Notes: generated by a model from the letters alone, not told the origin. A stretch of DNA of 64,000 nt from Vermamoeba vermiformis (GCA_045837725.1 JBEWZL010000178.1:1-64000); one strand, 5' to 3'. Positions 19,742 to 48,166 are shown, counted from the stretch's first letter. Program-made: numbers and translations.

Positions 19742-21571
19742 TTACGTTTCAAATGCTTGACAGCTGATATCAAATAGGTCATTGTTAGAATTAACTGATT
19801 CAATTTCAATGGTTATGGTTTGGATCTTACCTCCAAGTTCTTTCAAGTAATCTGCACAATCAGGATCTCCTGACTTCAGCTGATCATATGTTTCTTGGTC
19901 TATTGTGATAGGGTAGCCTACTTGCACCATGCACCTCAGCATCTCAAAACCAGTAACAGTAACTTCAACTCCATCCAGATCTGTCACCATCGTTAGGTGT
20001 GGATTACAGTTAAGTGTCATTATCACATACATCCATGTTCATAAGCATATTTGAAGCAGATTTCACTGGGAAAGTAGCAACCATTTGCAAGCTTATCTAA
20101 ACATAGCATTAGTGTCACTGGTGCAAATATAGATTTTGGTTTTTGACTGACATCTGTGCTTGAGCAAAAAAGCCATTGCAGGAAGTTTTTCAGTGGTGAA
20201 ATGCCAAGTCTGACCCACTTGAGCATATTTAGCTCCTTTTTGAATCGTCCATTCTAATTTTTCAACATCACCACTTTTTAATGCCATCAACAGTATCTCA
20301 TCAGTGAATTCAAATGGTTTATGATTGTAAATCAGTTTCCAGACATTCAGTGGACAGCCTTCCAATAAAGATTCAATGTACTCTCTCTTTGATTTTGGAT
20401 GCAAGTTTTTCTCTAGAACATATTTGATAACTTCAACATTTTTGCCGTACACAGCATGGCTGAAAAGATCAGGGCTGTGATCATCCTTGGGTTGCAATCC
20501 AAACTTCTGTTCTTCAATACACCACTTGAAAAATTCAAAATCTCCAGTTCCAGCTGCAATCAAGCCCAGGAAGTGAGGCTTGACAGTTTTAGTTGTCAAT
20601 AAATACTCTAAAATATCTCTTTCAGCTCTTCTTGTTGCTTCCACATAGACTTGTGGTGATAACTCTGCATCAGTCTGTTCAACTAGAAATTTCAACATTT
20701 GAACAGATTTGACAATTTTGATTGACTGCTCAAACTTAGCGCCATTCTCAAGCATGTACTTGAGGCACTCTAGACTGTCATAATAAACTGCAATTGGAAT
20801 ATCATGCTGTTGATTCCACAAAGCTCCATGACTGTGAGCCCATTTCAACATTTCCAAGTCTCCTATTTGCACTGCATTTTTGCATGCAACTTCTTTCCAA
20901 TTAGAAGAGTATTTGCTGTATATTTCTAATGCTTCAATGCTTTTGAACTCCAAGGAACCAGACCATCCAGGGATTGGCCATTTGTTTTTGAGTGCAAACT
21001 GCAAACATTCAATCCTATTGTTATTGACAGCATGCAATATCAGAGACTCGTGACATTTGAATCCATGCTTGTGCAGATATTTGACGATTTCTAAATGATT
21101 TTCAATGGCTGCAAGTGAAAGAATATCAAAATCTGCCTTGCTGCCCTTTCTCTTTTCTTCTTGATCAGGAGCACGTTCCTTGACACCGTTCTTGAGACAG
21201 TACTTTAGCATCTCTAATTTGCCGTGCTCTGCTGCGACGTGAGCTGTTTTTAGCTTCAATACGCAGTTGTTTGCTCGGAGAAATTTGAGCACGTCAATGT
21301 CATCTTTTTCAACCGCCAGTTCGGTGAGAGAAGACGGGAAAAACACGTTCAGGGACTTTAAGTATTCCAAGCACGATATACTGCCGAGCTCTATATAATA
21401 TTTAGTGCTATCGTAGTGATTGTGGACGAAGTACTTCGGAAACGGATGTTGCTTGGCGACGAAGCTGAAAAAAGACTTGCACGATGAGCGTAACATAATC
21501 AAGTCGAAGACGTGGCTAGTGCTGACTATCAGTTTCAACAGCTCGGCAGGGAGTAACGAGAAGGGACTCTC
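19742..21571 (-). CDS. F-box + ankyrin-like repeat protein (start codon upstream not resolved)
   Basis: ESPFSLLPAELLKLIV..LRSSCKSF F-box; repeats AAEHGKLEMLKYC, AAIENHLEIVKYLH, AVQIGDLEMLKWAH; two short 3' introns restore the frame to 19742. Confidence 0.85.
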
Positions 21572-22420
21572 CTGAGTTTTAGGCGATTAATTAAAATTGT
21601 TATTTGACACGTAAATTATCTTCGAAGATTCTCTTTAATATTAAATAATATTTATTTCGTTGATATTAAACGATTAATTGATGACTAATTTATTCAGGAA
21701 AGATTAAAAAATTATTAACAGAAACGATCTCAAGTTGGTTTTGCTATTTCGCTACGTACGGCATTAAATTGATTTACATCCCATTTAAAACGGTGTTTCG
21801 GATTATTATTTTCCATAATTATGCGTATGTGTTGTCATCTGATTGCACGCTGAAAAAATCTTGCAACAGCTGATTATGATTTATTTATCAATTTAGGCAA
21901 GGCCTCACACAACAAGGGGCGCTTCTCCTAAGAAGAAGTAGATCATTACCAGCTATTACAAGCTAATTGCGGCGGATCTATCCAACCTGGTTGAGTATTA
22001 TTATTCGTTCGAGTGAATTAATTTAACTTCGTCTCAATGAAGTCTACGAAGGTAATTATAATCAACATTCATTTTGCAATTACTCCGTTATTTTTGTAAA
22101 AATCGTTGAGCTATGATTGATTTAATAAAAGATTTTTTCGAAGCAGATGCAACTTCTCGGCAACAGCACGCACTAATTGCTCGTAATTCAGCCATCCAGA
22201 TTACTGATCTATAATGCGGTTTATAATCACTATTGGCACGCTAGGGTCGCTATTAGTTGCCCGATCAAATTCCCCACCCAGCGAGTTCTGCGTTGTTGTC
22301 TGGCGTTGTTTCTGGCGCTATTTCGCTTGCAGATATTTCGATAAGCTCTATTCTAAGATGCACGCTACGGCACTCGCCTTGAGTGGATGGTTCGTTCACG
22401 AAAACTAATGACAATTACAG

Positions 22421-27357: not shown

Positions 27358-30300
27358 CTATGAGTCGTAATACAAGTCTCGTTGTACGCGCAAGAACTCG
27401 ACCTCTTCGTTGCGCTCTTCAAATGGCTGTGCAATCATTTTGGTCGTGCCGCTCATCAGTGACTGCGACGGCAAATTGGCGAGCTCGAGCGGCACTGCGG
27501 CAATTTGATTGTGGAACAGCGTCATGAACTCGACGTTGCGGAGGTTTCCGAGGTCTGATGGCACCGAGACGAGTTGATTGTGCGAGAGATCCAAGCCCTT
27601 CAAGTTGGTGATCTGACCAATCTCCGGCGGGAGATATTCCAATTTATTCTCCGCTAGTCGCAGCTCACGCAGCAGTGTCAATTGGCCAATCTCGCGCGGG
27701 AGATCGGTAATTCCGGACTTAACCAAACTTAGTAATTCTAGCGACTTGAGCGCAGTGATCGACGTTGGAATTCTCGAAATGAAATTTCCTCCGAGCGCTA
27801 GAATACTTAATTTGGTCAAGCACGTGATTACTGATGGAAAATAGGCCAATCTGTTGCTTTGCAGGACCAACCTTCCTAATGCGGTTAATTGCGCTAATTC
27901 TGGCGGAAGAAATGTCAGCTCGTTGTTTTGCGCGTAAAGGCTGGTGAGATGCGTCAAATTTCCGACTTGAGTTGGCAGCTGATATATGTGATTGTAGCCT
28001 ATATATAATTCGACTAAATTCGTCAAATAGCCAATCTCCGGTGGAATTCGCATGAGCATGTTGTGTTGGATGTAGAATTTGACCAAATTAGTTAATTTGC
28101 TGAAACTCGCGGGAATTTCATCAATCTCGTTCAAATTGAGCAACAAATAATTCAAATTCGTCAATTCTCCGATCGAGCTCGGCAGTGCACTTATCGAGTT
28201 GCCGTAGAATTCCAGCAATTTCAAATTAGTTAATTTTCCGATGTCTTCTGGTATGCTCGACAGGTAGTTGCTGTTGCACGTGAATTTGGTCAATTTGTTC
28301 AGTGAACAGATCGGCTCAATCGAGCTCAACTTGTTGTTGCTGAGCGTCATTTCGTAGATCTGTGTGCAGTAGCCTGCGCCGTCGGGTAACGATGAAATTT
28401 CATTTTTGTGCAGGAACAGCATTTGCAAGTTGGTTAGCCGAGAAATATCCTAAATTGGTAATAAAATTAGTAAGTAAACCGTTACTCAGTCTCAAAAATA
28501 GAACCTTGCTGATAAGCAATTAAAATGTGTAGCAATATTAATATCAATTCGATTTATCATTATGTGAAATCGGTTGGTTACAATTGTTCGTGTTTAGTCA
28601 AATGTAGAAAAAGTATTTTTAGGGAGATCCGCGACAAAAATTTCAGTGATAGTTTCCAAGGGTATTTGTCAGCATATAGTATAAATATTTTATGTAATTA
28701 AAAATGGCTGGGGTTCGATACGATAATAAATAAAATTAATAAAAATTAAATGATCTACTTACATTAGGCAGTGCCACAGCCTTGTTGTCCTGATAACAAA
28801 ATCGCGTTAAATTGACCAAGTGACCAATCTCCGCGAGTGATTGCAGCGACGAGAGGTGATTGTGCTGAACGTTCAGTGAAACGAGTTCTGTTAATCGGAA
28901 CAGCTCCGATGGCAGTGCTGTCAATTGGTTCCTGCCTAATTCGAGTAATTGCAGTTGTGTTAATTGTCCGATCTCCGAGGGTAATTCCACCAATGAATTC
29001 TCGCGCAAAAATAAAACTTTCATTTGCGTGAAATTTCCAAGCCAAGGCGGGATCGTCACCAAAACATTGCCCTGCAAATTTAATTTTTGCAAAGTTGTCA
29101 ATGACGACAGCGGGTGAGGCAGTTGCTGTATTTGGTTATAACTGAAATCGAGATCTTGAAGTTTTTCCAATTTTCCGATCTGATCCGGGATGACGGTCAA
29201 ACTGTTCGATTTGAACGACAACGTGATGATATTCTGCAAACCAGTGATATTTGCAGATAAGGTGTGGAAGATGGCGTTGTTGTTCACGAGCAATGTTTGC
29301 AGTTGTGACAAGCTGTAGAGACCTTCGGGCAAGTGATGAAAGCGGTTGTGTGACAGCACGAGCTCGCGCAGATTGACTAATTGGGAAATAGATTCGGGGA
29401 TCTAAATATAGAACTGTTATGAGTATGCTGCGATGACTTGAACTTAAAGTTTCGTTCGAACTAAAAATATTTTTCACAATTTTAACGAATTTATTAAAGT
29501 TTTTCGGTTGCCTAATTAATTATATCGAGGAAATTGGCATTTAATTGGTTAATTAGGCGAATATTAGTGCAAGGAGAGTTAGTATTGCAAAAATTTCACG
29601 ATCGGAAGTAATCTCCGAAAAGTTATTGAAGTCCTAATGGTACTAATTGAAATTATAGTACGATATAGTTATAATGTAGACTATATGTAGTGGTAAATAC
29701 GATACTTACGGAGTGAATATCGTTTCTGGCCAACAACAGCGACTGCAAATTTGTTAACGTGAAAACTGCTTTGGGCAGACTGGCAATTCTGTTCTGACGC
29801 ACGGATAAAAACGTCAATCGGAGTAATTGACTAATTTCATCGGGAATTTCCGTCACGTGATTGCCCCGTAGTGTTAGCCTTTCCAAATTTGTCAATTTCA
29901 AAAGTGGTTGCGGGATCTTGTAGAACTCATTGAAGTGCAATAAACACGTCTGCAAAGATTGCAACGCGGTGAATTCTTCGGGCAATTTGCGAATTCGATT
30001 CTTCCATAAATTGAGCAATCTAAGATGGGTCAGTCGACTGATCTGCGGGGAAATTTCCGTGATTGGTGGCGTGAAGTGTTCGAGCTCTAATAGAGGATGT
30101 TGTAGTGTACTATTCAGCTCTATTATGCCTTCAACGTCGCCTACTTTTTTCAATTTCTAAGAAAATTAAAGAATAAATTAGTTATGAAAACATATAAAAT
30201 TTCAGTACGAATCTTGCTAATGGACCTCGTAATTATTTAGAAATTATGACGCTATATTACATTAAATATTGTATAAATGTGGCTCATGATATGATTTGAT

Positions 30301-30609: not shown

Positions 30610-31454
30610 CTACGATCCAAAATTAGTTAATTGCAATTTATCGAGCGTGTCAAGCTTAAAATTGCTCCAAAAATTAATTCAGACATGTGTATAGCTCGGG
30701 TAGGGTATTTTAGACTTGTATATCAGGTCAGGACCGCCAAAAGTATCGGTCGATATTAAAAAATTCTTTTGATGGTATTTTGCAGCATTGTAAAGACGTC
30801 AATATTATCTAAAATAGCCTTTTTCTCGGTTGAGAGAATTTTTTGAATTGTTTGCTGCGTTGGATCTGAATTTTGAATTTTGTAGATGGCATCACTTTAC
30901 CTTCGTTTCTAAGCTCTAAAACTGTTACCTAGAGGTCATATTAAATAAATATTAATAATAAATAATATACACAGTGCTGTTGTTACTATTTAACAGTGCT
31001 AAAAGACAAAAACTTCAAAAACGAGCTTCTAACAAAACGCACGTGCACAAGACAATAGAGCTACTTCCGTATTACTAATGAGTATTAATAAGACTACGGT
31101 AGCATAGTACGCGAATTACTCTTAATTATTACTCGCATCTGCGGATTTCGTTCGATCGAGCTCAAAATCGGTTACTTACCTAGAAATGCCGTTTTGATGC
31201 TTTAAATATAATTTATGTTTATACTTATGGCAAATTATGCATTATTAATCGGATTGCACGAGCCCCAAGCGAGATCAAGAGTCCAAAACCGGATGCACCA
31301 AAATTCAACCCCTGTTCACTCGAAATTACTATTTTTCTGGACAATATATCATATTTATATATGCTTCTTCTCAGTCTAGCGGAATAGTTCTGTGTAATCT
31401 GGCGCGAGATTTATTGAGCTGCGGGAAAAAATTAAATTTCACTTCAAGGATCAA

Positions 31455-34400
31455 ATGAGCACCAATAAGCGCCCGCCATCCTCGATATATGAGGCTATGG
31501 CCGATGCATCTGCATCGAGCATAATCGATTCATTGCGAAGTCCGCGATTGGACCTAACGGATTCGGAATCTGAAGACGGATTGAATTACGACGAAATTTT
31601 GAATCGTTATGCCAGCGTTGCGGATCAATTTTCAATTATTAGATGCCAAGCATTATTAAGAAAATATGCAGAGATGATGCGGGTCAAAAAAATGCGTAAG
31701 TTGCTGCTCCATCTAATTTAAAATTCAATTAATTATAATTTTTTAATCAGTTGCTTGTATTCCAAAACGAAATGGTACTGCTCGAGAAGTATTAGATACA
31801 GAAGTGAAATATATTGAAAATCTAGAACAAGTTGTCGAGGTAAAAATACTTTTAGTAATTGTTGAATTGGATCTTACTCCACTTCACTCCAGCCTGTAAT
31901 TTGATAATAGGATAGTGTGTAACTAAATATTTTAATTATTTTCAGGTGTATATTAAACCATTACGAGCGGATGCGAACAACAAAGGGCAACTCATCAACA
32001 AAGACGATCTCAAAACGTTATTTTCAGAATTGGAAGTTATTCTTGCGTACGCTAAGAGCTTGAAGAGTCGTATTAAAGAGCGAGTAGACAAATGGTTCCC
32101 CACACAAATTATTGGCGATATTTTCGTTCAAATGGTAAGTTAGAAAATAATTGAATTTAAAAATTAGAATAATTATTGCTGCTATTCAAATTAATAGGCA
32201 ATATGATATATAGAGTAACCGTAGTATCGGCGTAATATTGATGCCAAAATTGTACCACAATTTATTCGATCTGCTTTTTGACGGTTACTTTTAACCGGAT
32301 CCAAAGCGCATTATTTTGTTTGAAAAACCGATGATTAGACTTCATACTACGACGGTATATGACGTCTTAAACTTATGATTATGTTCAGTATAATGATGGT
32401 TTTTTTAATTCGCATTTATTTTTTTATTTTTTAATGCCACGCTGGATCTGCTCCAAATAATTAATTTATTAATTTAACTATAGATTGATTTCTTTAAAAT
32501 CTACACGCAATATTGCACGAATTATCCCAAGGCTATGGAGACTCTCGAACGATGCAAAAAGAACTCGAGTTTTGTCAGTTTTTTGCAAGAACGCGAGCAA
32601 GCCAGCGGAGTTATTATTCCGATCGAAAATTTCCTTATTATGCCCGTACAACGTAAGTTTTCATCGCCCGATCGTTTCCATATTTAGTAATGTAACTTTG
32701 CAAAAATTTACTTGGTCACTTTAACTTTCTTCGGAGTCATCCGGTTTGACTCGCAAATGCTAATTGTATTTGCTACTATTATAGGCATCCCTCGATATGC
32801 ATTGTTAGTCGAAGAACTGATGCGCAACACTTGGGAAACACATCCAGATTATGACAACCTAAAAAAGGCATTGGTGCGCATTCAAGAAGTCGCTGAATTC
32901 GTCAACGAACAGAAGCGTTACAAAGAAAACTTTGCACGAATTTTAGAAATTTACAACAGCCTTGTTGGTATCAAGGTAAGGTTCACATCTGATCGAGAGG
33001 GATCTACTGTCCATTATTGCTATATTATTATCGTATAGTTCCATAATTGGACAGTATATATTAAATATAGATATTGTTGTCAATGCCAGCGTGAGCTAAT
33101 CAGATGTTTTTTTTTTTTTACAGACCGAGGCTAAACAAGACATGCTTATTTTACAAAAAAATATTTGGTTTTTGCGTGAAGGCAACGTGTTAGAACTGAT
33201 GATGAAGGGCAGCTTGACTAAGTTCTATATCTTTTTGTTCAACGGTATGTACTCGAACACTATACTTTGCAACCATTTTTCTCGGTTCTTACGAATTTCC
33301 TTTTTTAGGCATGTTGCTTTGGACGAAGCCGTCGAAGGGCACATACGAATTTAAAAAGATAACGCCGATAGATCCGCAAACCAAAGTTGAAATTCGTACG
33401 ACAGATGAGGGGTACAAAATGATTCATTTGACCACTTCACAAGGCCTCTACGTGTTCAAGACGGACAGTGCTGAGGACGCGGAGTCGTGGCTGAACAAAA
33501 TCAACGAGTCCAAGAACTTTGTCACGCCTGGTAAGTCCTCACAATTTTTTCTTGCAAGAAATCTTCGGATCTTTTTTTTGACGGAAAGCACCTCTCGTAG
33601 AAAATTCAACATGAGAGAGAGTTAGTTTTTTTGCGCGTGGTGCACTACTGTGTTTTTGATAGAGCTGACGTGACTTTTCTTTTTCTAGTCATGGAACGCA
33701 AAGAGGAAAAATCTGGTTCAAATCCAAGCTCGTTGTCGCCGAGCCCTAGTGTTAGTCGTAAAGAAGAGATGATCGTCTCGCCGTCATTCACGCACCACCG
33801 TGCCAGTTCAATCGGATCCGCTGCGTCCCTTGTCGGATCCAGGTCTTCGCCGGGTATTAGCAGAAGCAGCACACCTAAAAAGAAGTAAGCTTTGCAATTA
33901 TTTCTACGAATTCTAGCAAAGACTGACGACCTTTTTTTGCAGCCGAAGCCGTGCTGGCACGAACAGTCTCGTGCTGACCGGTGGCACGAACCGTTTATTG
34001 GAGCTCAAAGAGCAAGAAGAAGCCGACACGAGTGTCAATCAAAAGATCGAAGAGGAGGCGAAGTTTATTAAGGGTGAGAACTACTATTGATATCTATTAC
34101 CAAATAAGGCTAATTCTTTATTCTAGAATGGGAGGCACTCGATGATACCCCCGAGCTCGACAAGTTCTCCGTTGCTCCACACGAGATTAGGGAATCTTTT
34201 GAAGACCCGGCGAACGACAACTTTAATCAGTACTCGGCAGTTATTCGTGCAGCACAAGCTGTAAATGTCACGTGGGAGGGACCCGAGATCGTTTTGATCG
34301 GCAAAAAGGGCGAAGGCCGAACATCGGTCCTTGAAGCCTTGTTGGGCCAGCACATCACTGGATCATGTAAGCTCGGCACTGAGATGACTTTGCAACAATT

Positions 34401-37033
34401 TATTCACATTTTCCTTATTTAGGTCGTCCGCTGTTCATTCATCTAATCAATAACCCGAAGCGTTCTACGGCCCGCATTGTTTTGAAAAAAGATACGTCGC
34501 TCAAAAGCGCCCATTTCTTTAACGACGTTGAAGTGCGGCCAGAAGAATTGGACGTGGAAATTATGAGCAGATCCAAAGTGTTTTCGTTGGTCCCTATTCA
34601 CATACACTACGAACACAAATCATTGTGGAACATGACTATTATTGACCCGCCTGGCGTTGCCTCGTTCAACATTTTCGACGAATGGTATCAGTTTAACTTG
34701 ATGTCGAAGGCTGTAAGTTCCATATATGGTAATTGTCGCGAAATTTTATTAACGAAGTATTTCAGAGCATCAAAAACTCGCAGGATGACATATCTCAAAT
34801 CAAAGATTACATTATTGATTTGGCGAAAAAAGAATCAAGACTGTTAATGTTCGTTGAAGAATGCAAAGAGCCTTCAGTTATGAGCATCAATCGTATTGCT
34901 AAGCAGCTGGATCCGCAAATGACCAGATCCATCTTCGTCCACACGAAATTTCATTACAAATTGCGCGACATGCTCGACTTTAACGAAGTCAATTCGTACT
35001 TTAATTTGACAAATATCAACGCGGCTAAAACTTTCTGGGTCAGTTTGGTGAAACGAAGACCGAAGGCGAACACGACTTACGAATTTCGAAGAAAAATGAT
35101 TCAAACTCAAAAACGAGATTTGCTGCTCTTAGAAGAACTTCAATACGACCGAAAAATGCAATCACATGTCGGTGCCGTCAATCTTAGGTAATATTAATAG
35201 TGACTTCAAATGTTTGGTTTCGTGATAACTTACGACTTGCCATTTATAGAAATTTTATTATCCGCGACATCGAAAAACGATTCAAAGAAGCGATTCCCGC
35301 CAATTTGAGTCAGATCCAACAAATGATCCTCAAGACTTACGCAAAGTACGAAGCTATTGACCATGCCTTGCAACATATCAATGTGAATACTGCTCGTATT
35401 CGTGCCAACGAATTTGTAAGAAAAATTCATAATTTAATCAATTTTGGTACTAATTTCCATTTTAGGTAAATACTTTTGTATCTAATTTCCACAAACTGAT
35501 GACCGGCACACTTGAAATGGAACTCAAATTAGGCATGAGCATTCGCCGAGAATACGAAGAGTTTGGTGGCTGGATCAACGGCGACAATCAGCCGATTATT
35601 ATTGATGCTAAAACGGTGAGTCCTCTTTCCTTTTGGTTATTCATTTTGCCGTCAACTACAAGAGATCCAAAATGATCTACAAATTTCTTCGACTTTCAAT
35701 CGTTCATGAATCTCTTTCATAAGTTAATCATTCAACCAAGCAGCTGACAGCGGAACTTTTTTTGTGCAACAAACGAACACGTTAAATTTGGCTAATTATG
35801 TCAATTTAATATTATAATTATTTTTTTTTGTTTTGCGTCAATAATTCAAAAAAGTATTATTGTGAAAGTTTCAACAAGTGTCACTCCCAGTTAATTTATT
35901 TCTACTTGAATGAAACAATTTTAATTGTTCTACTATATTTAGATTAAGAGGTACAAAGAGAGACTGTACGGCAATCCTCAGCTGATCAGAATGGTCGCCG
36001 TGTTCGAACAAATCGTGAAAACTTTGCAATTCGACTTGGCGGAAGTTGAGAAAAATTTGGCGACAGCAACGAAGACTAGTCTCAATCAAATAGTACGTAG
36101 TTATTATGGCCGTCGGGCTTAGTAGTATATAGTGCCTTATATTGATATCTATATTAGGCTAATGAAGTTGTCATCGCCAAATCATCGCGTCATTACGCAC
36201 CTCTCGCGACACAATTGTGCAACAAGTTGACGGCCTGCATTAAAAATATGATCAATGCGGCCTATGTGACAGCACGTGGTACTATTACCAGATCAGGAAA
36301 TATCCTTCAGGATACGCTGCTGTTAAGTCACGTGAAGAATTTGTTCGAGGACGCGATCGATCAATTGGCCGAAACAGCGGTGACCAAGTGCTTGAACGAG
36401 CTGAAATTGGCGCAAGTAATATCAACTCACAGGTAAGAATACCATATTAATACTATACCCGACACTGTGTATACGATCTAATATTGCAACAGCTTCAGTA
36501 TTGAGGGCATGAAGCACAGCAAGTCGACGGATGTGGCAGATCTGATCGAAGAAGTTTTGTCCAGGATTGCAAAACAATTCGTTGGATCGGTATCGCTTCA
36601 AGTATACGATTCATTTGTTTATTCAGGGTACGTAACATGTTCTTCCGCTATTTACTGGATTCGTCCATTAACGAATCTGAATCTGCTAGGCTGAAAGAAG
36701 TGACAACGCAATTGACTGTTAAAGTTGCTTCGTTCACTGAAGAGCAATTAACTCAATATGGCGAGCTGCAAAATATCAAGTTACAGAAAGAAAACGTAAG
36801 TTTCAAAAAAAAAGATCAGATTTGATGCGAAAACAAATAAACTAACACGGAATCCTTAGGAGCAAAAGGCTATATTCGCCGAAATTAAGAGGCTGCAAGA
36901 GTCGCACGATGCATTATACACCGCAAGTCAAAAGTTCATCGAGCAGAACGGTGATTTTATTCATTCGTTCTTGCCTGAGGCTGTTCAGTCGTTGTTGAAG
37001 CACGGAAAATCATCACCGCATATCAAAGTGTAA
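31455..37033 (+). CDS. IQ-like + RhoGEF (DH) + PH fused to a dynamin-like (Dlp/DRP5-type) domain with degenerate G motifs
   Basis: EVLDTEVKYIENL; LIMPVQRIPRYALLVEEL; HPDY; PH exons; in-frame introns 33531-33688, 33885-33942 and 34074-34126 lead to PEIVLIGKKGEGRTSVLEALLG, CRPL, IIDPPG, DPQMTRSIFVHTKF; stop TAA 37031-37033. Confidence 0.8.
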
Positions 37034-37237
37034 TATTACTATGAAAATATAAATACTATGTGATTTAATCGATTGGCGTTGATTATCAATGCGCCTTAAG
37101 AACAAATCCGCCAAAAAGACTTCGGTAGGTAAAAAACGCGTTTTCAACAGCAACCATTTTGAAGTATCAGGTGTATAAAGTCGACAGCTCATTTTTTACT
37201 CATAGTTTTAATTAGAATAAAGTACACCGTTCATCGT

Positions 37238-40200
37238 TTATTGTACGATGCAATTGTCCTTCTTTTTACCTACGTCACTAAAGTTAGAATTCTGACGTTA
37301 ACTTACACCAACACTCTACGTACCTTTCTTGCCATAAATAGCCTTCCACTCGTCATACAAATGATGATACTCAGGACCAGGCCACTGACCACGCACCACT
37401 TCTTCACGATTGCCCAGTGTCATGTCGTTCTTGAACCACGACTGTTCGTTGATGGTGTCAAAGTTGACTTGCATCCACCAAATACAATACGAGCGCAGCT
37501 GTCGCAATTCGAGCTCTTCTGCAAGTGTCAGGACACTCAGCACGTATCCGTGTGCATCGTGCTTGTCTTCTTCTTGCACCAAACTTTGCAGCCGACATGC
37601 ACAGTGTGAGGCGTATTCTTTGAGGTTCATCTGCAAAACAAATTATCAATCGGGTGTGCTTCACAAACGGCGTGCAATAAGTGAACTGACCTTGATAAGT
37701 TTTGGCAGTACTTCCATTGAATATGAACCAGGTTTGTTTTCGAAGTACACAGAGCCAGTGTACAAGAATCGTTTCACCGCTTCGAACTCCAGGTCAGTCA
37801 AGTCGACTTTGATCGTGTTGTTTTGTTCACTGTCAGCGAGAATAGCACCGAAATGATCACTTCCTGCCACAAGTAGAGCCTTGAAAAAACACTGTTAGAC
37901 AAACCATGGATAGCTCTTATCTTATGATTTGCATTTGACTTACCTTGTGACAGAACTCTCGCTTTTTGCTTGGAAGTTCAACGCACACATCAGCGAACAC
38001 AGGCACTGATGCGGTCTCGTTATTATTGTTGTTATTGTTAGCGTTGTTACTCTCAGCCAATGACAAGAAGAATCTCTTTCGCTCGTCAGATGTGAAGCGA
38101 GGATATCGTTGGAAGAATGTCAGTCCTTCTTTGACTGCCTCGACTGAGAAGTCCTTGGGCATGGGAGGCAGCGCTAAATGTACAGATTAGATAGCTATTC
38201 AGTGAACCGTGGTTGCATTCAGTGAACGTACCAGTGTAGCACGAGACCAGCACAACCAAGAACGCCTCATACGAGAAGTCTTTGACGTCAATCGTCACGT
38301 GCTCTTCACGCTTCCATTCAACAACTCGGTTAGTGAGCTTCAATGTCGTCACGTCTTGTGCAATGGTGTCTGCAACTTTGCCGGTGAACAGGTACAGCTC
38401 TTCGGTGTCAGCATTGAACGACGCTGCGTGGTACAGTCTGCTTGGTGCTTGACCTTCGAATAGGAGCTACAAATAGAACAATATTTAGCCCTTGTTATTG
38501 TTCGCAGTGTCGGCGTGTGAAATAAAATTGATAAAAAATCGATTGCGTACCTTGGTCCACTTGAGAGTGGTGTGACGAGTGTTGAGAACAAACACATCTG
38601 AAAAGTCTCTGTTCTCTTTCGCATTCTGTCCACCGTGAATAATAACGTTCTCACTGTCGATTTGTGCCATTGCAAAGCCTGTGCGTGGTTCTGGAATGTC
38701 ACCTTTGACTTTGACTTCGCTCCAAGTCTTGGTCGTGAGATCAAATGACAGCACTTCATTTAACGGTGCAGTGCCGTTAGTTCCACCGAACACAATCATC
38801 ACTGGCTTCTTCTTGTGTTTCATGAGCACTGCATGATGATTGTATCGTGCTGATGGCCAACCTTGTTCGGTCATTGCAACTTGATTCCACGTGTTCGTAG
38901 TCAAGTCGAGAATGAACAGTTCGTTACTCTTGCCACCTTCATTGTCATATCCTCCGAACACAATCATTTCATTCTCGTGCAACACTGCTGAATGACCGTA
39001 GCGAGGGGCAGGGATTGTGCCTTTTGTGTCAAGTTTGACGAACTCCAATGTCTTTGTGTCGAACACAAATGTGCTGTTCGAGTACTTGTTGCTCTTGCCT
39101 CCAAACACGTAGATCAAATGATCTTTCACCACTGCTGAGTGAAGATTGCCTTGTGGGTAAGTGCCGTTGTTGGTCAGTGCAATCGGATCCAACCACTTTG
39201 ACCCGTCTACGTGAAAGAGGGATTAATTATACGCTTTAAGAGGAGTCATAAATAGCGTACCAAATCGCAACACGTTGTTGCAAGCATTGCCTCCAATGTC
39301 AGCACCACCAATGATGTACGTGACACCGTTGATTGTCGATGCTGTTGCTCCGTATCTGGCTCCGTGGAAAGGCGGTAATGCTAATGATTCCTTCACACTA
39401 CACACCTCGAAAGATTTCTTGTGCTTTTTGGCTTCTTTTGTTTCGCTTAAACTCGTCTTCGTGAGCGTGAACATGGGTGGTAGCTCAGTTGAACCGTTGA
39501 CAAAGATCTTCTGAAACATTGGACTTGATGCACTCAACACCACTTTGTGAGCGAATAACTCTCTGTTAATAACGAGGAGAAGTTAGTGTGATCGGTGAGA
39601 TTGGTTCACGAAAGAAAAGAAGATCGAGTCATGAAAAAAAAACGAATTGGCGTACTTGTCTTGCACTCTGAAAGTGACATCTGAGAACTGTTTGTTGTTG
39701 ACAAGTGTTGCAAATCGAGCGTCAGTGAATGTCAGTGGAGATACGACGGGTGGTTCAGGTTTTGCTGGAAGTGGTGGCGGTGGATTTTTTACCGTCGGAT
39801 CTATCACGACACGAATGGCGGTATCGAACACTTCTTTCAAACCCTTTTGTGTCAGTGCCGAGCTTCATGAATGACAGGTTAATAAAATTGATAAAATGAT
39901 AAGCTGGAAGCGTTACCATTCAACGTATTTGAATGCACCGACTTCTTTAGCCAGTTGCTCTCCTTGTTCGAACGTCACCGGATCTGGTCCGAGTTCTTGA
40001 CCCCAATTATGTTGAAGATTTGCCGCAGGTCCGTCTCTTATGTCAACTCTTGTGCCGACAAGAAGGAACGGCGTGTTTGGGCAATGGTGCGTGATCTGAA
40101 GCCAAATCAGTTGGCTGTTTTACCCGATATCTCTTTCAATATTATTTTCATACCTCAGGGACCCACTATTACAAAAGGTTAGTATTTGAGGAAAGGCTCG

Positions 40201-41185: not shown

Positions 41186-44100
41186 TCACTGAACTACACA
41201 ATCCTTATCCTTCTTTTTGCCTGGCGATCACGAGGTTAACTTTGACGTGAATTAACACCAACACTCTACGTACCTTTCTTGCCATAAATAGCCTTCCACT
41301 CATCGTACAAATAGTGATACTCAGGACCAGGCCACTGACCACGCACCACTTCTTCACGATTGCCCAGTGTCATTTCGTTCTTGAACCACGACTGTTCACT
41401 GATGGTGTCAAAGTTGACTTGCATCCACCAAATACAATACGAGCGCAGTTGTCGCAATTCGAGCTCTTCTGCAAGTGTCAGCACACTCAGCACGTATCCG
41501 TGTGCATCGTGCTTGTCTTCTTCTTGCACTGAGTCACGCAAATGACATGCACAGTGTGAGGCATACTCTTTGAGATTCATCTATCAAGTCGCATTAGCTC
41601 ACAATAACGTGTCGTGAACAATTCCAGCCGTGCCATTGTTACCTTGACGAGTTTGGGCAAGACCACTTTCGAGTACTCATAAGGCTTGTTTTCAAAGTAA
41701 ACGGTGCCAGTGTACAAGAATCGTTTCACTGCTTCAAACTCCAAGTCAGTCAAGTCGACTTTGATCGTGCAATGCTGTTCAGTGTCAGCAAGAATAGCGC
41801 CAAAGTGATCACTTCCTGCCGCAAGTAAGGCCTTGGGTAACATTGTTAGCAAATCTTGGATAGCTCTTTGATTTGCATTTGACTTACCTTGTGACAGAAC
41901 TCTCGCTTTTTGCTCGGAAGTTCAACGCACACATCAGCGAACACGGGCACTGACGCGTTCTCATTAGTATTGTTGTTGTTAGCGTTGTCACTCTCAGCCA
42001 GTGACAAGAAGAATCTCTTTCGCTCGTCAGATGTGAAGCGAGGATATCGTTGGAAGAACGTCAGTCCTTCTTTGACTGCCTCGACTGAGAAATCTTTAGG
42101 ACTTGGAGGTAGCCCTAATAATGAATTAGATTTCACATTTATTAATAAATGCCACATACCAGTGTAGCACGAGGCCAAAACGACCAAGAACGCCTCATAC
42201 GAGAAATCTTTTACTTCAATCGTGAAGTGCTCGTCATACTTCCAATCGACATCGTCGTGCTCTTTGAGTTTAAAAATAGTTGTTTCTTGTGCAATCGTGG
42301 TAGCAGTTTTCCCCGTAAACAAGCACAGCTCTTCTGTTTCAGCGTTGAATGACGCTGCGTGATACAGTCTGCTGAGCTCTTGATCCTCACAGTGCAGCTG
42401 CACGAAAATTAGTTAGCGTAGTCCAGAGTATTGACTTCAACGTACCTTGGTCCACTTGAGAGTGGTGTGACGAGTGTTGAGAACAAACACATCTGAAAAG
42501 TCTTTGTTCTCTTTCGCATTCTGTCCACCATGAATAATAACGTTCTCACTGTCGATTTGTGCCATTGCAAAGCCTGTGCGTGGTTCTGGAGTGTCACCTT
42601 TGATTTTGACTTCACTCCAAGTCTTGGTACTGAGATCGTACGATAATATCTCGTTCAGTGGTGTTGTACCGTTTGTTCCACCAAACACAATCATCACCGG
42701 CTTCTTCTTGTGTTTCATGAGTACTGCATGATGGTTGTATCGTGCTGATGGCCACCCTTGTTCACTGATTTTCTCGGTGCTCCACGTGCTCGTTGACAAG
42801 TCGAGAATGAATAGTTCGTTGCTCTTGCCACCTTCATTGTCATATCCTCCGAACACAATCATTTCATTCTCGTGCAACACTGCCGAGTGACCGTAACGAG
42901 GTGCAGGTACCACTCCTTTGGTGTCGAGTTTGATGAACTCCAATGTCTTTGTGTCGAACACAAATGTGCTGTTCGAGTACTTGTTGCTCTTGCCTCCAAA
43001 CACGTAGATCAGATGATCTTTCACCACTGCTGAGTGAAGGTTACCTTGTGGGTAAGTGCCATTATTGGTCAGTGCAATCGGATCCAACCACTTTGAGCCG
43101 TCTACATAACAAGCAGTTAACAAAACAATTACTGTTAATTCAAACAACAATAATTTACCAAATCGCAACACATTGTTGCAAGCATTGCCTCCAATGTCAG
43201 CACCACCAATGATGTACGTGACACCGTTGATTGTCGATGCTGTTGCTCCGTATCTGGCTCCGTGAAAAGGTGGCAACAGTACCGAGTTTTTCAAGCTGCA
43301 CGCTCCGTACGTCCTATTGAGTTTGCTTCCTGATACTTGTTCGAATGGCGTCTTCGTCAGCGTGAACATTGGAGGCAGCTCAGTTGAACCGTTGACAAAG
43401 ATCTTCTGAAACATTGGACTTGATGCACTCAACACCACTTTGTGAGCGAATAGCTCTCTGTGAATAACGAGGAGAAGTTAGTTTGATTGATGAGATCGTT
43501 AAACGTACTTGTCTTGCACTCTGAAAGTGACATCTGAGAACTGTTTGTTGTTGACAAGTGTTGCAAATCGAGCGTCGGTGAATGTCAGTGGAGATACGAC
43601 GGGTGGTTCGGGCTTTGGCGGAGGTGGTGGCGGTGGATTTTTGACCGTCGGATCTATCACCGCTCTGATTGCCGTATCAAAAACCACTTTGAGACCTTGT
43701 TGGGTCCGCGCCGAGCTATGAATATGTACAGCAAGTTAGTATCAGAGATCCATTGTAACAAAACACGGGTGTTACCATTCGAGGTATCTAACAGCTCCAA
43801 CTCGTTTAGCCATCGCTTCGCCTTCTTCAGTGGTAATAGGCTCCGGCCCTAAATCTATTATTGTGCCGTAATGGTTGTACGGGGAATCTCGCAGATCAAC
43901 TTTCGTGCCAATCAGAAGGAACGGCGTGTTTGGGCAATGATGCGTAATCTAACGATTGTGAGCCATATGTATATATATTCGTATAAAATAGATACCTCAG
44001 GCACCCACTACGTGATCGCGTTAGAATTGTGTACAGAAATAAATAATTGCTTTTACCTTGGCAGCTACATTGTTAAAGCTATTTCTACGGTGGATTGTAA

Positions 44101-46028: not shown

Positions 46029-48166
46029 TTATTTATAACTCTCGTTTGCAGTTGGAAATCCTTTTTCAAGGATGTAATTGTACACTGTTGGCGAATCACT
46101 TCGGCGCGTGGATCCCTCGTCATTATTAGTTGCACTAGCTTCAGTAGTTTGATTATTATTATTATTGGTGACCTTAGTAGTGGGCATAATGACTCGCCAG
46201 CCTTTAGCAGCCCCAGAAAATTCGTTGCTAATGCTGGTCGTGGTAGTCTCCACTTCAATGCTGCTGTTGCTGCTCGTCGGTGCTGTGACAGCTCTAGGAC
46301 TAGACACCGTGGACCTGAATATGACGCGATTGCTCGGACTCGTGCCAGGTGACACCATATTAGGGTTATTCGGCGGACTACTAGGATTGCTCGTGACTTC
46401 AAATGAGATTGTGTTCACTGCTGGAGCACTCAAACTGGTCTGTAGCGTGCCTTGGTTCGGATTCAATTGCTGACTCTTGTTACGCGCAATTGACAGCGGT
46501 CCTGACTTTTCCGCTTCTAAAAATAGAACAGTATTAATACGGCGTCAAAAAGATGCATTGCGCTTGTACGATAAGAAAGCTATTCAATAGCTTCTATAAT
46601 TACCTCTATGAAGATTAGGCGAGGAGTTCTGTTTGACTTGATTGGGCCTGTTCTGTGCACGCGTCACAACATCCTTTGCAATACTTCCAAGAGCATCACG
46701 GAGAGCAATTGAAGGGTCACTGTGCGACATCGGAACTATCCTCGGTGAATTAGCGTTGCTGTTGTTGGCGCTACTCGCATTACTGGAAGTTGCGGAGGTG
46801 TTGGCACTGTTCGTGTTGGAACTCTCACGTGAGCTATTTTGAGCTTGTAATAGTAACTGTCGTTGCGTAGGTGGCGGGGTCGAGTTCATATCAAACTCTC
46901 CTTGCTCCGATTTTGCGATGAGTTCTTGTTCCAGATCCGTCAAAGCTGCTTGGCACGCGGTGCAGATTTTGATTGGCTTGTCGAATCCAAGTCTCGGCTG
47001 TGGCTTTTTAGTGGCTATTAAGCACTTTGAGTCGACAATAAGGCCACATAAGCGACAGTGATGCTAAAAATAGAACGTTAGATCAGGATCGATAAACCAT
47101 AAAAAAACTTCTGAGTTAGTTGAGGTTACTTACGCGTCTATTAACGTAATTAAATGCAGTACCGCAGACCTTGCAAGATTTGAAAAGAATATCTGGCTTC
47201 CAATGAGATTTAAATTGCAAGTTGGTGACTTTCAGTGAACGGAGCAAATAGAAGTACCGCACGACGATCTCGTTTCCATATTCGGAAATATTTGCAGGCA
47301 CAACGAAGGTCTGGCTCGGAGTGTGCACCAATTCTTTCAAATTTTTGCAATGAACGATGGCTGGCGGAATTTCTATGTCTGGAAGTTCGACCATTGATAA
47401 GAACCGCAAGCTGGTCATTTGGGAAATTTCATCGGAAATTGACTTGATCTTGTTACTGTCCAACAATAACAGCTGAAGATTTCCTAATTTGTAAAGTTCT
47501 TTTGGGAATTCAGTGAGCAAGTTGAAAGGCAGCGTCAAAATTTCCAAATTAGTTAATTCGCTGATTTGAGTTGGTAATGAGGACAGGAGATTTCGCTCGA
47601 GATTTAATTCCTTCAATTGCACGAGCTGGCTGATTTGTGCTGGCAAAGCTGTCAATAAATTTTCCGACAAGTTGAGACTGGTCACTGCCGCCAAATTGTT
47701 CAACATTAATGGCACCGATGGAATTCTATTCCGCGACAAATTGAGTTCTATGAGCTGGTTCTCTGAAAGTCCTTCTAAATTAGGAAAAGAGTCCAAGCCA
47801 CAGTTTTTGAGGATTAATCGTTGCATAGAATTCGGCCATAATTGTCCAAATTGATTCCCTGACTTGAAGAATGTGTTCCTATAATTATTATAACTATATT
47901 AATACCATGAAGAAATTCCGCAAAGAACAGAATCTTTTGCAATCTTGATCCGCCGTCAAAAATCAGATCCGTAATAAACAATTGCAGAATGTTATTATAT
48001 AGTGAGATATAATCATTATTTGCATTTGTACTTACATGTCCTTGGTATTGGTCATTTCTATCGTCGTGGATTGTCTTTCAGTGAACCCCGCCAATTTGTC
48101 GATAATTTTTTGCAATTCTTTCGACTCTTGTATCGTCAATTTGTCTGCTAAATAGTTCGTATACAT
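46029..48166 (-). CDS. LRR + FYVE zinc finger protein with Ser/Asn-rich tail
   Basis: LRR exon 47116-47826; WKPD..CKVC..F..VNRR-HHCRLCGLIVDSKC..KICTAC FYVE; low-complexity C-terminal exons. Confidence 0.85.

Follow-up and report, generated by a model that had tools for sequence, protein, structure and literature searches.

Predicted RhoGEF-Dlp fusion protein encoded by a spliced gene of Vermamoeba vermiformis

Gene model and transcripts

The window is a stretch of 64,000 nucleotides of Vermamoeba vermiformis DNA (GCA_045837725.1, JBEWZL010000178.1:1-64000), read on one strand from 5' to 3'. The gene described here occupies 31455–37033 on the plus strand, as do all of its features given below. 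It is very probably one gene with one fused product, in which a Dbl-type guanine nucleotide exchange factor (GEF) module, composed of a DH (RhoGEF) and a PH domain, is followed by a dynamin-like protein of the Dlp family. Such a fusion of RhoGEF and dynamin had been proposed in a sequence-only reading of the locus. It is upheld by an intact gene model, by spliced contigs and by collinear fused relatives, with the joint across intron 8 deduced.

The gene model was rebuilt by hand from the sequence and then checked by script. Nineteen exons, coding sequence of 3657 nt, translation of 1218 amino acids without internal stop. The stop codon is TAA at 37031–37033. All 18 introns are of the GT..AG type, 50–349 nt in length, mostly with GTAAG donors and with a pyrimidine run ahead of the AG. 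The order in the protein is IQ-like motif, DH, PH, Ser-rich linker and full dynamin-like protein. Three canonical introns had been said to lead from PH through the linker to dynamin, and the rebuilt model agrees: intron 7 (33531–33688), intron 8 (33885–33942) and intron 9 (34074–34126) are GT..AG introns and all preserve the frame. Intron 8, 58 nt long and reading GTAAGC...TTTTTTTGCAG, is the junction on which the fusion depends. If it is retained, an in-frame TAA at 33886–33888 would end translation.

Exon 10 encodes a helix and the P-loop GKKGEGRT. It had been named as the key exon at 34127–34367; the exon stands, its end is one base too long, and the model places it at 34127–34366. It sits in a stop-to-stop frame (34114–34422) that has no in-frame ATG, and for that reason is missing from the ATG-based open reading frame (ORF) list, as had been remarked.

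Run X1 is labelled 'RNA? (a guess)' and was counted as transcript-derived solely since its contigs lack introns. Fourteen X1 contigs fall on the gene, three at 99+% identity and 11 at 95–99%, and extend from 31459 to about 37075. Among the joints listed, 12 of the 18 introns are absent from these contigs (4, 5, 6, 9–16 and 18, of which 5 and 6 belong to the PH region); the contigs therefore derive from spliced RNA, either of this species or of a sibling. One contig, whose pieces lie at 31459–31695 and 31944–32114 with 87 letters between them, implies introns 1 and 2. Intron 7 is backed by the loose ends of two X1 contigs (13 letters of exon 7) and by four raw RNA reads of run X8 that continue from exon 7 to exon 8. 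Introns 11 and 16 are also crossed by raw RNA-seq of an organism 90–95% identical (X6–X8, with 129, 135 and 122 reads).

Removal of intron 8 is inferred from the frame, from homology and from the lack of a start codon downstream. After the PH domain and ahead of the P-loop, Met is encoded in frame only at residues 409 and 435, both in exon 8 and upstream of the intron; no Met codon occurs from the start of exon 9 to the P-loop. Any product that contains the P-loop hence requires the removal of intron 8. Exon 9 has a canonical acceptor and no start codon, and is joined to exon 10 in X1.

T-rich tracts of the two long introns, 3 and 14 (32400–32433 and 35810–35834), gather poly-T reads in X6–X8. 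The same tracts give a spurious 'goes back 3420' joint in these runs. No Rfam match was found at an expect value (E) ≤0.1 in 31000–37500.

The two halves of the protein

Pfam scans and Protein Data Bank (PDB) searches of the window were run exon by exon; the spliced protein was compared locally with fetched proteins. A candidate IQ-like motif (residues 61–80, 31635–31694) closes exon 1, just ahead of the DH domain. It is a lead drawn from alignment with residues 11–29 of the fused relatives P0085, P0086 and P0087, where Pfam IQ scores at E about 0.005 and 16.8–17.1 bits, under the cut-off of 20.3. On exon 1 of the window, Pfam gives no match, IQ included.

The DH domain extends over 31751–32975 in exons 2–5 (31751–31839, 31946–32134, 32484–32652 and 32785–32975). 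Three collinear stretches of the RhoGEF profile PF00621 (cut-off 27.6 bits) are matched: positions 23–81 by exon 3 (E 3e-6, 28.0 bits), 83–139 by exon 4 (E 1.6e-11, 45.2 bits) and 141–180 by exon 5 (E 6.7e-11, 43.1 bits). In the Dbl family, the GTPase is contacted by conserved blocks, among them a Glu-containing block in conserved region 1 (CR1) and 'PVQRxxRY' in CR3. The window carries TEVKYIENL and PVQRIPRY, respectively. The CR3 block is kept in all eight aligned fused proteins, reading PVQRVPRY in P0030 and PVQRITRY in P0008. The PH domain comes directly after DH, at 33124–33530 in exons 6 and 7 (33124–33244 and 33309–33530); on exon 7, PF00169 reaches E 2.1e-5 and 25.4 bits against a cut-off of 25.1. 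It is followed by the Ser-rich linker of exon 8 (33689–33884), with 20 Ser among 65 amino acids. By its domain matches, DH-PH is a Dbl-type RhoGEF module with intact conserved blocks.

The closest solved structures to the window DH are the DH domains of Asef, intersectin, Tiam1 and P-Rex; the best match of exon 4 is Asef and that of exon 5 is intersectin-1 (E 5.7e-8). For the DH of P0085 (residues 35–239), the best match is ECT2 (E 4.7e-23), the next best reaching 3.4e-18. Assignment to a RhoGEF subfamily or substrate was rejected, with ECT2 best for P0085 and Asef and intersectin best for window exons 4 and 5.

The dynamin-like half begins with exon 9 (33943–34073), which corresponds to a conserved helix segment ahead of the G domain, common to all fused relatives. 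The P-loop GKKGEGRT lies at 34300–34323 in exon 10, its Arg codon being CGA at 34318–34320. The GSCRPL motif (34360–34433) spans the junction of exons 10 and 11. Exon 11 (34423–34712) contains switch I, with Ser595 at G2, the G3 motif DPPG (34644–34655) and, after G3, a clade-specific insert. Exon 12 (34766–35187) holds the G4 region, with TKFH at 34943–34954, and the end of the G domain. Exons 13–19 (35250–37033) encode the helical part assigned to stalk and bundle-signalling element. GKKGEGRT, GSCRPL and DPPG, as quoted in the sequence-only reading, are all present at these exons. The Dynamin_N profile (PF00350, cut-off 27) gives 15.5 bits on exon 10 and 14.1 bits on exon 11, collinear at profile positions 1–24 and 35–115. 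The G2–G3 segment of exon 11 yields weak but consistent matches to dynamin and DRP structures in the PDB. Exons 13–19 align to the end of P0029 and to the end of unfused Dlps.

The fold was modelled with AlphaFold2 on the fused relative P0035, with a 34-row alignment (A2) and a mean predicted local distance difference test score (pLDDT) of 78. The dynamin part of the model, about residues 280–970, has pLDDT 81–97; the truncated DH and the linker are low. The counterpart of exon 9 is a helix (residues 273–301, pLDDT 81–86). The counterpart of exons 13–19 is all-helical, with pLDDT about 85–95, and superposes on full-length Drp1 and dynamin-1. Foldseek matches the model to Drp1 (5wp9_A, E 6.6e-18, 672 columns) and to dynamin-1 (7ax3_A, E 1.9e-16), and also to Mgm1, MxA and MxB; G-domain chains are matched at template-modelling scores of 0.68–0.71. 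Because the P0035 model matches full-length Drp1 and dynamin-1 filaments, the module is predicted to be a whole dynamin-like protein, with G domain, bundle-signalling helices and stalk, beyond a G domain alone. A two-copy prediction of P0035 residues 560–975 scored 0.00 in both runs, in which the alignment was not used, and speaks neither for nor against self-association.

Fused relatives, family placement and G-domain motifs

An exhaustive HMMER search with exon 12 returned 82 relatives at E ≤1e-3. Nine long ones were scanned with Pfam, and four of them (P0008, P0029, P0030 and P0035) carry RhoGEF together with Dynamin_N. PH is found in these at E <0.001 (P0029, P0035), at E 0.0099 (P0008) or as the SOS1/NGEF type (P0030). 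When the dynamin part of P0029 was used in a word-based search, nine matches came back, eight of them with precomputed PF00621 and PF00350; the domain content of P0085–P0088 was confirmed by an own Pfam scan. P0085–P0087 have a complete RhoGEF (profile 2–180 of 180), PH and Dynamin_N. Dynamin_N passes its cut-off in all eight fused relatives scanned (28.9–49.6 bits). The co-occurrence of PF00621 and PF00350, proposed earlier as a check, is thus found beyond this genome, in 10 other clusters at 90% identity: P0008, P0029/P0084, P0030, P0035 and P0085–P0090. None of the ten is characterised. Several fused relatives are each encoded by one unbroken ORF of >1000 codons, on contigs 10–70 kb long, so that nothing parts PH from dynamin in those organisms.

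The spliced window model was compared by local phmmer with a set of 84 proteins, five of them fused. The DH-PH part matches only those five (E 1.4e-46 to 7.4e-57). The exon 9–10 segment matches the same five at E 7.5e-7 to 6.4e-5, in the collinear position after PH and before the G domain. Over its whole length, the dynamin part of 703 amino acids aligns with P0029 (E 8.7e-75), and also with unfused proteins of about 650–800 amino acids, such as P0004 (E 3.7e-66). N-terminally, the fused proteins align from the IQ-like motif through the P-loop, and exon 9 of the window begins exactly at a conserved block. The other fusions thus resemble the window protein in order from the IQ-like motif to the C-terminus, in the collinear linker segment and in falling in one clade. 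They differ from it by an identity of about 30% in the dynamin part, and by GKT kept in the P-loop and Leu at G2, where the window has Arg and Ser.

P0008 is RefSeq XP_049848091.1, 'dynamin-like protein A', filed under Schistocerca gregaria. This protein, on a contig of 218,639 bases under the locust name, falls in the protist-type RhoGEF-Dlp clade.

The exon 12 search limited to longer proteins gave 241 candidates and none at E ≤0.001. In metagenome contigs, exon 12 gave 87 pattern matches, none confirmed, and a 30-base stretch of exon 9 gave no match. In the ESM Atlas, the nearest entries to P0029 residues 1–1020 were ordinary dynamins at 0.86, under the lead level of 0.9, and no fused cluster was met. 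One further exon 12 relative, P0073 (1025 amino acids), has leucine-rich repeats and a filamin repeat, then a Dlp-like part that matches the window dynamin part at E 1.3e-31 and in which the GK[ST] of the P-loop is missing. The Dlp module seems to have been reused in more than one architecture.

Family placement was examined with a profile (A1) of 25 unfused relatives. It matches 'dynamin like protein' of Heterostelium, Cavenderia and Tieghemostelium, and proteins of Dictyostelium discoideum, D. purpureum, Balamuthia, Planoprotostelium and Physarum; next come dynamin-3 (E about 1e-21), then DRP1E and Mx (E about 1e-12). Among named proteins, those closest to the window dynamin part are amoebozoan. 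Among solved structures, A1 matches dynamin-1 at E 9.1e-28, and this alignment maps the family motifs to K44, T65, D136–G139 and T205–D208, the family consensus 'tkfh' standing opposite dynamin-1 TKLD.

A G-domain tree was built from 50 rows (49 hand-picked from 170 proteins, and the window) over 268 columns and rooted on seven dynamin/DRP1/Mx rows. The 43 family rows stand apart from the seven outgroups (dynamin-3/DRP1E/Mx) with a support of 100 in the Shimodaira-Hasegawa-like approximate likelihood ratio test (SH-aLRT), in keeping with the earlier placement in the Dlp branch. Named rows within the family are Heterostelium, Cavenderia, D. discoideum, D. purpureum, Balamuthia, Planoprotostelium and Dermamoeba, and the fused clade is nested inside it. 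A full-length tree comprised 49 rows (48 of 91 proteins, with matches of at least 420 aligned residues, and the window) and 675 columns. In it, 12 fused rows and the N-terminally truncated fragment P0005 form one clade (13 of 49 rows, SH-aLRT 99), of which the window is the first branch. The insert after G3, tabulated for 50 rows (49 of 84 proteins with matches of at least 350 aligned residues, and the window), is common only to the fused clade and P0005/P0002/P0003. On these trees the RhoGEF-Dlp fusion is placed as having arisen once, inside the Dlp family (Dictyostelium DlpA–C), and the window protein as a divergent, early-branching member of a small conserved fused clade.

In the 894-residue row of D. 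discoideum, Pfam finds only Dynamin_N, and on this ground the row is taken as one of DlpA–C. It is not DlpB, given that DlpB has 808 amino acids in the available text of PMC6721605. The text available of PMC8565484 describes Dlps as related to DRP5A, with a G domain only and no other known domain. Like the window protein, DlpA–C and the amoebozoan Dlps belong to this family, have Ser at G2 in the dictyostelids and have lost the G4 Asp. By Pfam they have only Dynamin_N, without Dynamin_M or GED, and their helical C-terminal half aligns with the window throughout. Unlike it, they have no DH-PH, and Lys is conserved in their P-loop; the window protein falls in a distinct clade, which has the insert after G3.

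G-domain motifs were counted in the 43 family rows, window included, and in the seven outgroup rows. P-loop Lys: K in 39 family rows, R in one (window), E in one (P0005, in which the first ~35 residues stay unaligned), gaps in two; K in all outgroups. G2, at dynamin-1 T65: T 24, S 6, L 6, N 3, A 2, E 1 and gap 1; T in all outgroups. G3: first position D 39 and E 4, last position G 39, S 2, A 1 and D 1; D and G in all outgroups. G4 Asp: D 4, H 13, F 7, Y 5, S 4, N 4, A 3, Q 1, R 1 and L 1; D in all outgroups. The G2 Ser rows are the window, four dictyostelid Dlps, a D. discoideum protein among them, and P0075; the G2 Leu rows are all six other fused rows. Measured against dynamin, the window departs from GxxxxGK[ST] at G1, from Thr at G2 and from [NT]KxD at G4, and agrees with DxxG at G3. 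The change of P-loop Lys to Arg is present in one of the 41 family rows that have a residue there, the window only; GKT is retained in six of six other fused rows. P0035 reads DTLD in place of DxxG.

The G domain had been called crippled in the sequence-only reading, on P-loop, G2 and G3. Of this, the P-loop change stands as exceptional, the Ser at G2 is normal in the family and the DPPG of G3 is a canonical DxxG. Loss of the G4 Asp (39 of 43 rows, His in 13) is likewise normal in Dlp orthologues and, as judged from the rows compared, a trait of the family. The changes at G2 and G4 describe the family, and in part the Dictyostelium proteins active in cytokinesis; they mark no defect of this gene. 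This goes part of the way to the refutation named in the sequence-only reading, motif changes that are usual in active Dlp orthologues. The pseudo-GTPase reading is thus partly supported by the motif comparison, and would turn on one residue. That residue is real: exon 10 holds just three differences between X1 and the window, and none of them touches the Arg codon.

Among the differences listed in the dynamin part, 18 of 21 in X1 and 12 of 15 in organism D are synonymous; a further 126 differences stand outside these counts. Synonymous changes include the second Pro codon of DPPG and, in organism D, the His codon of TKFH. The pattern indicates a dynamin module under purifying selection, not decaying. 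A pseudogene was rejected on the intact frame, the spliced transcripts and the mostly synonymous differences.

Proposed role, alternatives and meaning

The favoured reading, held with modest confidence, is that a dynamin-like scaffold impaired in hydrolysis positions a Rho/Rac GEF, the two being encoded in one spliced gene of a conserved clade. The DH-PH module would activate a Rho-family GTPase (Rac-, Rho- or Cdc42-like). The dynamin-like part would assemble or dock at an actin-rich membrane site and concentrate the GEF there, and the GEF would then switch on the Rho-family GTPase locally. With Arg in the P-loop, GTP hydrolysis, perhaps also binding, would probably be lost in the window lineage; the scaffold would be static, its assembly no longer dependent on hydrolysis, rather than a cycling mechano-enzyme. 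Candidate sites are the cleavage furrow, the phagocytic cup or elsewhere. In the available text of PMC6721605, DlpA and DlpB are mutually required to reach the furrow and act on actin; DlpA also goes to phagocytic cups (PMC6721605 and PMC8565484, as far as their available text goes). A self-associating scaffold is described, in the part available of 10.1101/2023.10.03.560745, for the DRP-like pseudoenzyme Mmc1.

Several points weigh against this reading. Dynamin_N on the window's own exons is under the Pfam cut-off. The fold evidence is drawn from P0035, about 30% identical to the window protein. PDB rankings of the DH yield no consistent RhoGEF subfamily. The window branch is long (1.83), which makes its exact place less sure, and its union with the other fused rows has a support of only 80 in the G-domain tree. 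Ser at G2 and His at G4 are normal in the family and so are silent on inactivity. Arg can in principle still contact phosphates, and strong purifying selection would fit a working switch as well as a scaffold. As to the transcript, introns 3, 8 and 17 are not among the joints listed from read mapping of X1 and X6–X8, and the junction 33884->33943 is not directly seen among them. The X1 depth of 4.27 in the bin 33821–34037 cannot separate spliced from retained intron 8.

Of the alternatives, the one that survives best sees a regulated GTPase-GEF, in which the G domain would still act as a nucleotide switch, if a slow or GTP-locked one, and control either the GEF or the assembly. It is considered possible, with a probability well short of that of the scaffold reading. 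The selection just mentioned, with its 18 of 21 and 12 of 15 listed synonymous differences, speaks for it, together with the intact DxxG of G3 and a hydroxyl residue, Ser, at G2 as in the dictyostelid Dlps. GKT is kept in all six other fused proteins, which makes nucleotide binding probable for the ancestral fusion, and a change of P-loop Lys to Arg often preserves binding and slows hydrolysis. However, Arg at this position occurs in one of 41 family rows and in none of the seven outgroups, without natural precedent in the sample. The losses by lineage (Lys to Arg in the window, Leu for Thr in six rows and DTLD for DxxG in P0035) look like a relaxed need for hydrolysis; that different catalytic residues were lost in different fused lineages may mean that hydrolysis was less needed and the fold still needed.

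The model of the sequence-only reading, a dead dynamin module that co-polymerises with active Dlp paralogues and carries the GEF to the cleavage furrow, is unlikely. In its favour are the window module's place in the same family as DlpA and DlpB, their interdependence at the furrow and action on actin (PMC6721605, available text), and the DH of P0085, whose closest solved structure is the cytokinesis GEF ECT2 (E 4.7e-23). However, DlpA works at phagocytic cups too, as given in the same text, and the ECT2 ranking fails for exons 4 and 5 of the window itself.

The remaining alternative assumes two products, a DH-PH protein ending at TAA 33886–33888 with intron 8 retained and a separate linker-plus-dynamin protein started in intron 7/exon 8. 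In the stretch 33400–34400, for which an RNA check had been suggested, intron 7 is supported (X1, X8) and intron 9 is absent from X1 contigs, the intron 8 joint not being among those listed. Minor isoforms that retain an intron of 58 nt are common. Despite that joint and the in-frame Met409 and Met435 of exon 8, two products are very improbable: exon 7–exon 8 splicing is supported in X1 and X8 and exon 9–exon 10 splicing in X1, exon 9 has a canonical acceptor and no start codon and aligns with the conserved segment right after the linker of the relatives, PH, linker and Dlp of relatives lie in single uninterrupted ORFs of >1000 codons, and intron 8 has a donor and acceptor equal in quality to the splice sites of the 12 confirmed introns.

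The scaffold reading has analogues. Mmc1 of fission yeast is, like the dynamin part of the window protein, of the dynamin family, lacks key residues of GTP binding or hydrolysis and is proposed as a static scaffold; unlike it, Mmc1 is of the mitochondrial inner membrane, has no GEF module and is not closely related, and the window keeps most G motifs (10.1101/2023.10.03.560745, in the part available). The nearest functional analogy may be the animal Cdc42 GEFs Tuba (DNMBP, 'dynamin-binding protein') and intersectin, in which a Dbl-type GEF is likewise coupled to dynamin. Both bind dynamin through SH3 domains. Their link is non-covalent and to classical dynamin, whereas in the window protein the GEF is fused covalently to a Dlp-type partner; SH3, BAR and proline-rich domains were not seen in it.

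Both modules are known families, and their covalent union is undescribed in the literature searched. A full-text literature search gave no description of the RhoGEF-Dlp architecture in the main texts of the papers listed, supplements being outside its scope, which accords with the earlier statement that it was not known from characterised proteins. In a survey of the dynamin superfamily, 'RhoGEF' is absent from the main text, so far as available, and the supplement may list such architectures (PMC11789081).

Neighbouring sequence of the window contains further open frames, all on the minus strand. Near-identical stretches at 37900–39222 and 41846–43477, with Kelch-repeat-like and BTB-like segments and long shared peptide runs, look like a tandem gene duplicate directly downstream of the fusion gene. 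Long leucine-rich-repeat ORFs were noted by eye at 27358–30156 and 46584–47898; in one of them, also by eye, a Cys-rich stretch resembling a FYVE-type zinc finger follows. An intron-free ORF of 497 codons at 20093–21586 scores 0.97–0.98 in the ESM Atlas to ankyrin-repeat clusters, some of them from giant viruses.

The RhoGEF-Dlp gene also matters for annotation, being split or truncated by ATG-based ORF tracks and by gene callers of the prokaryotic style. Shuffling of GEF domains is common in protists, which tempers the importance of the fusion. The specialised question that it addresses is how the cytokinetic Dlp/DRP5A dynamins influence actin. The conserved DH-PH-Dlp fusion would predict a functional link between Dlp dynamins and Rho/Rac activation. 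Read tentatively as a 'Rosetta stone', it might mean that dynamins of the Dlp/DRP5A type, which stabilise actin at the furrow and at phagocytic cups, act through local activation of Rho-family GTPases, the polymer here being a nucleotide-independent positioner of the GEF in which catalytic residues are shed lineage by lineage and the assembly parts stay constrained. The fused clade would form a natural series of dynamin G domains from which different catalytic residues have been removed, and may inform on the role of dynamins as scaffolds without GTP hydrolysis.

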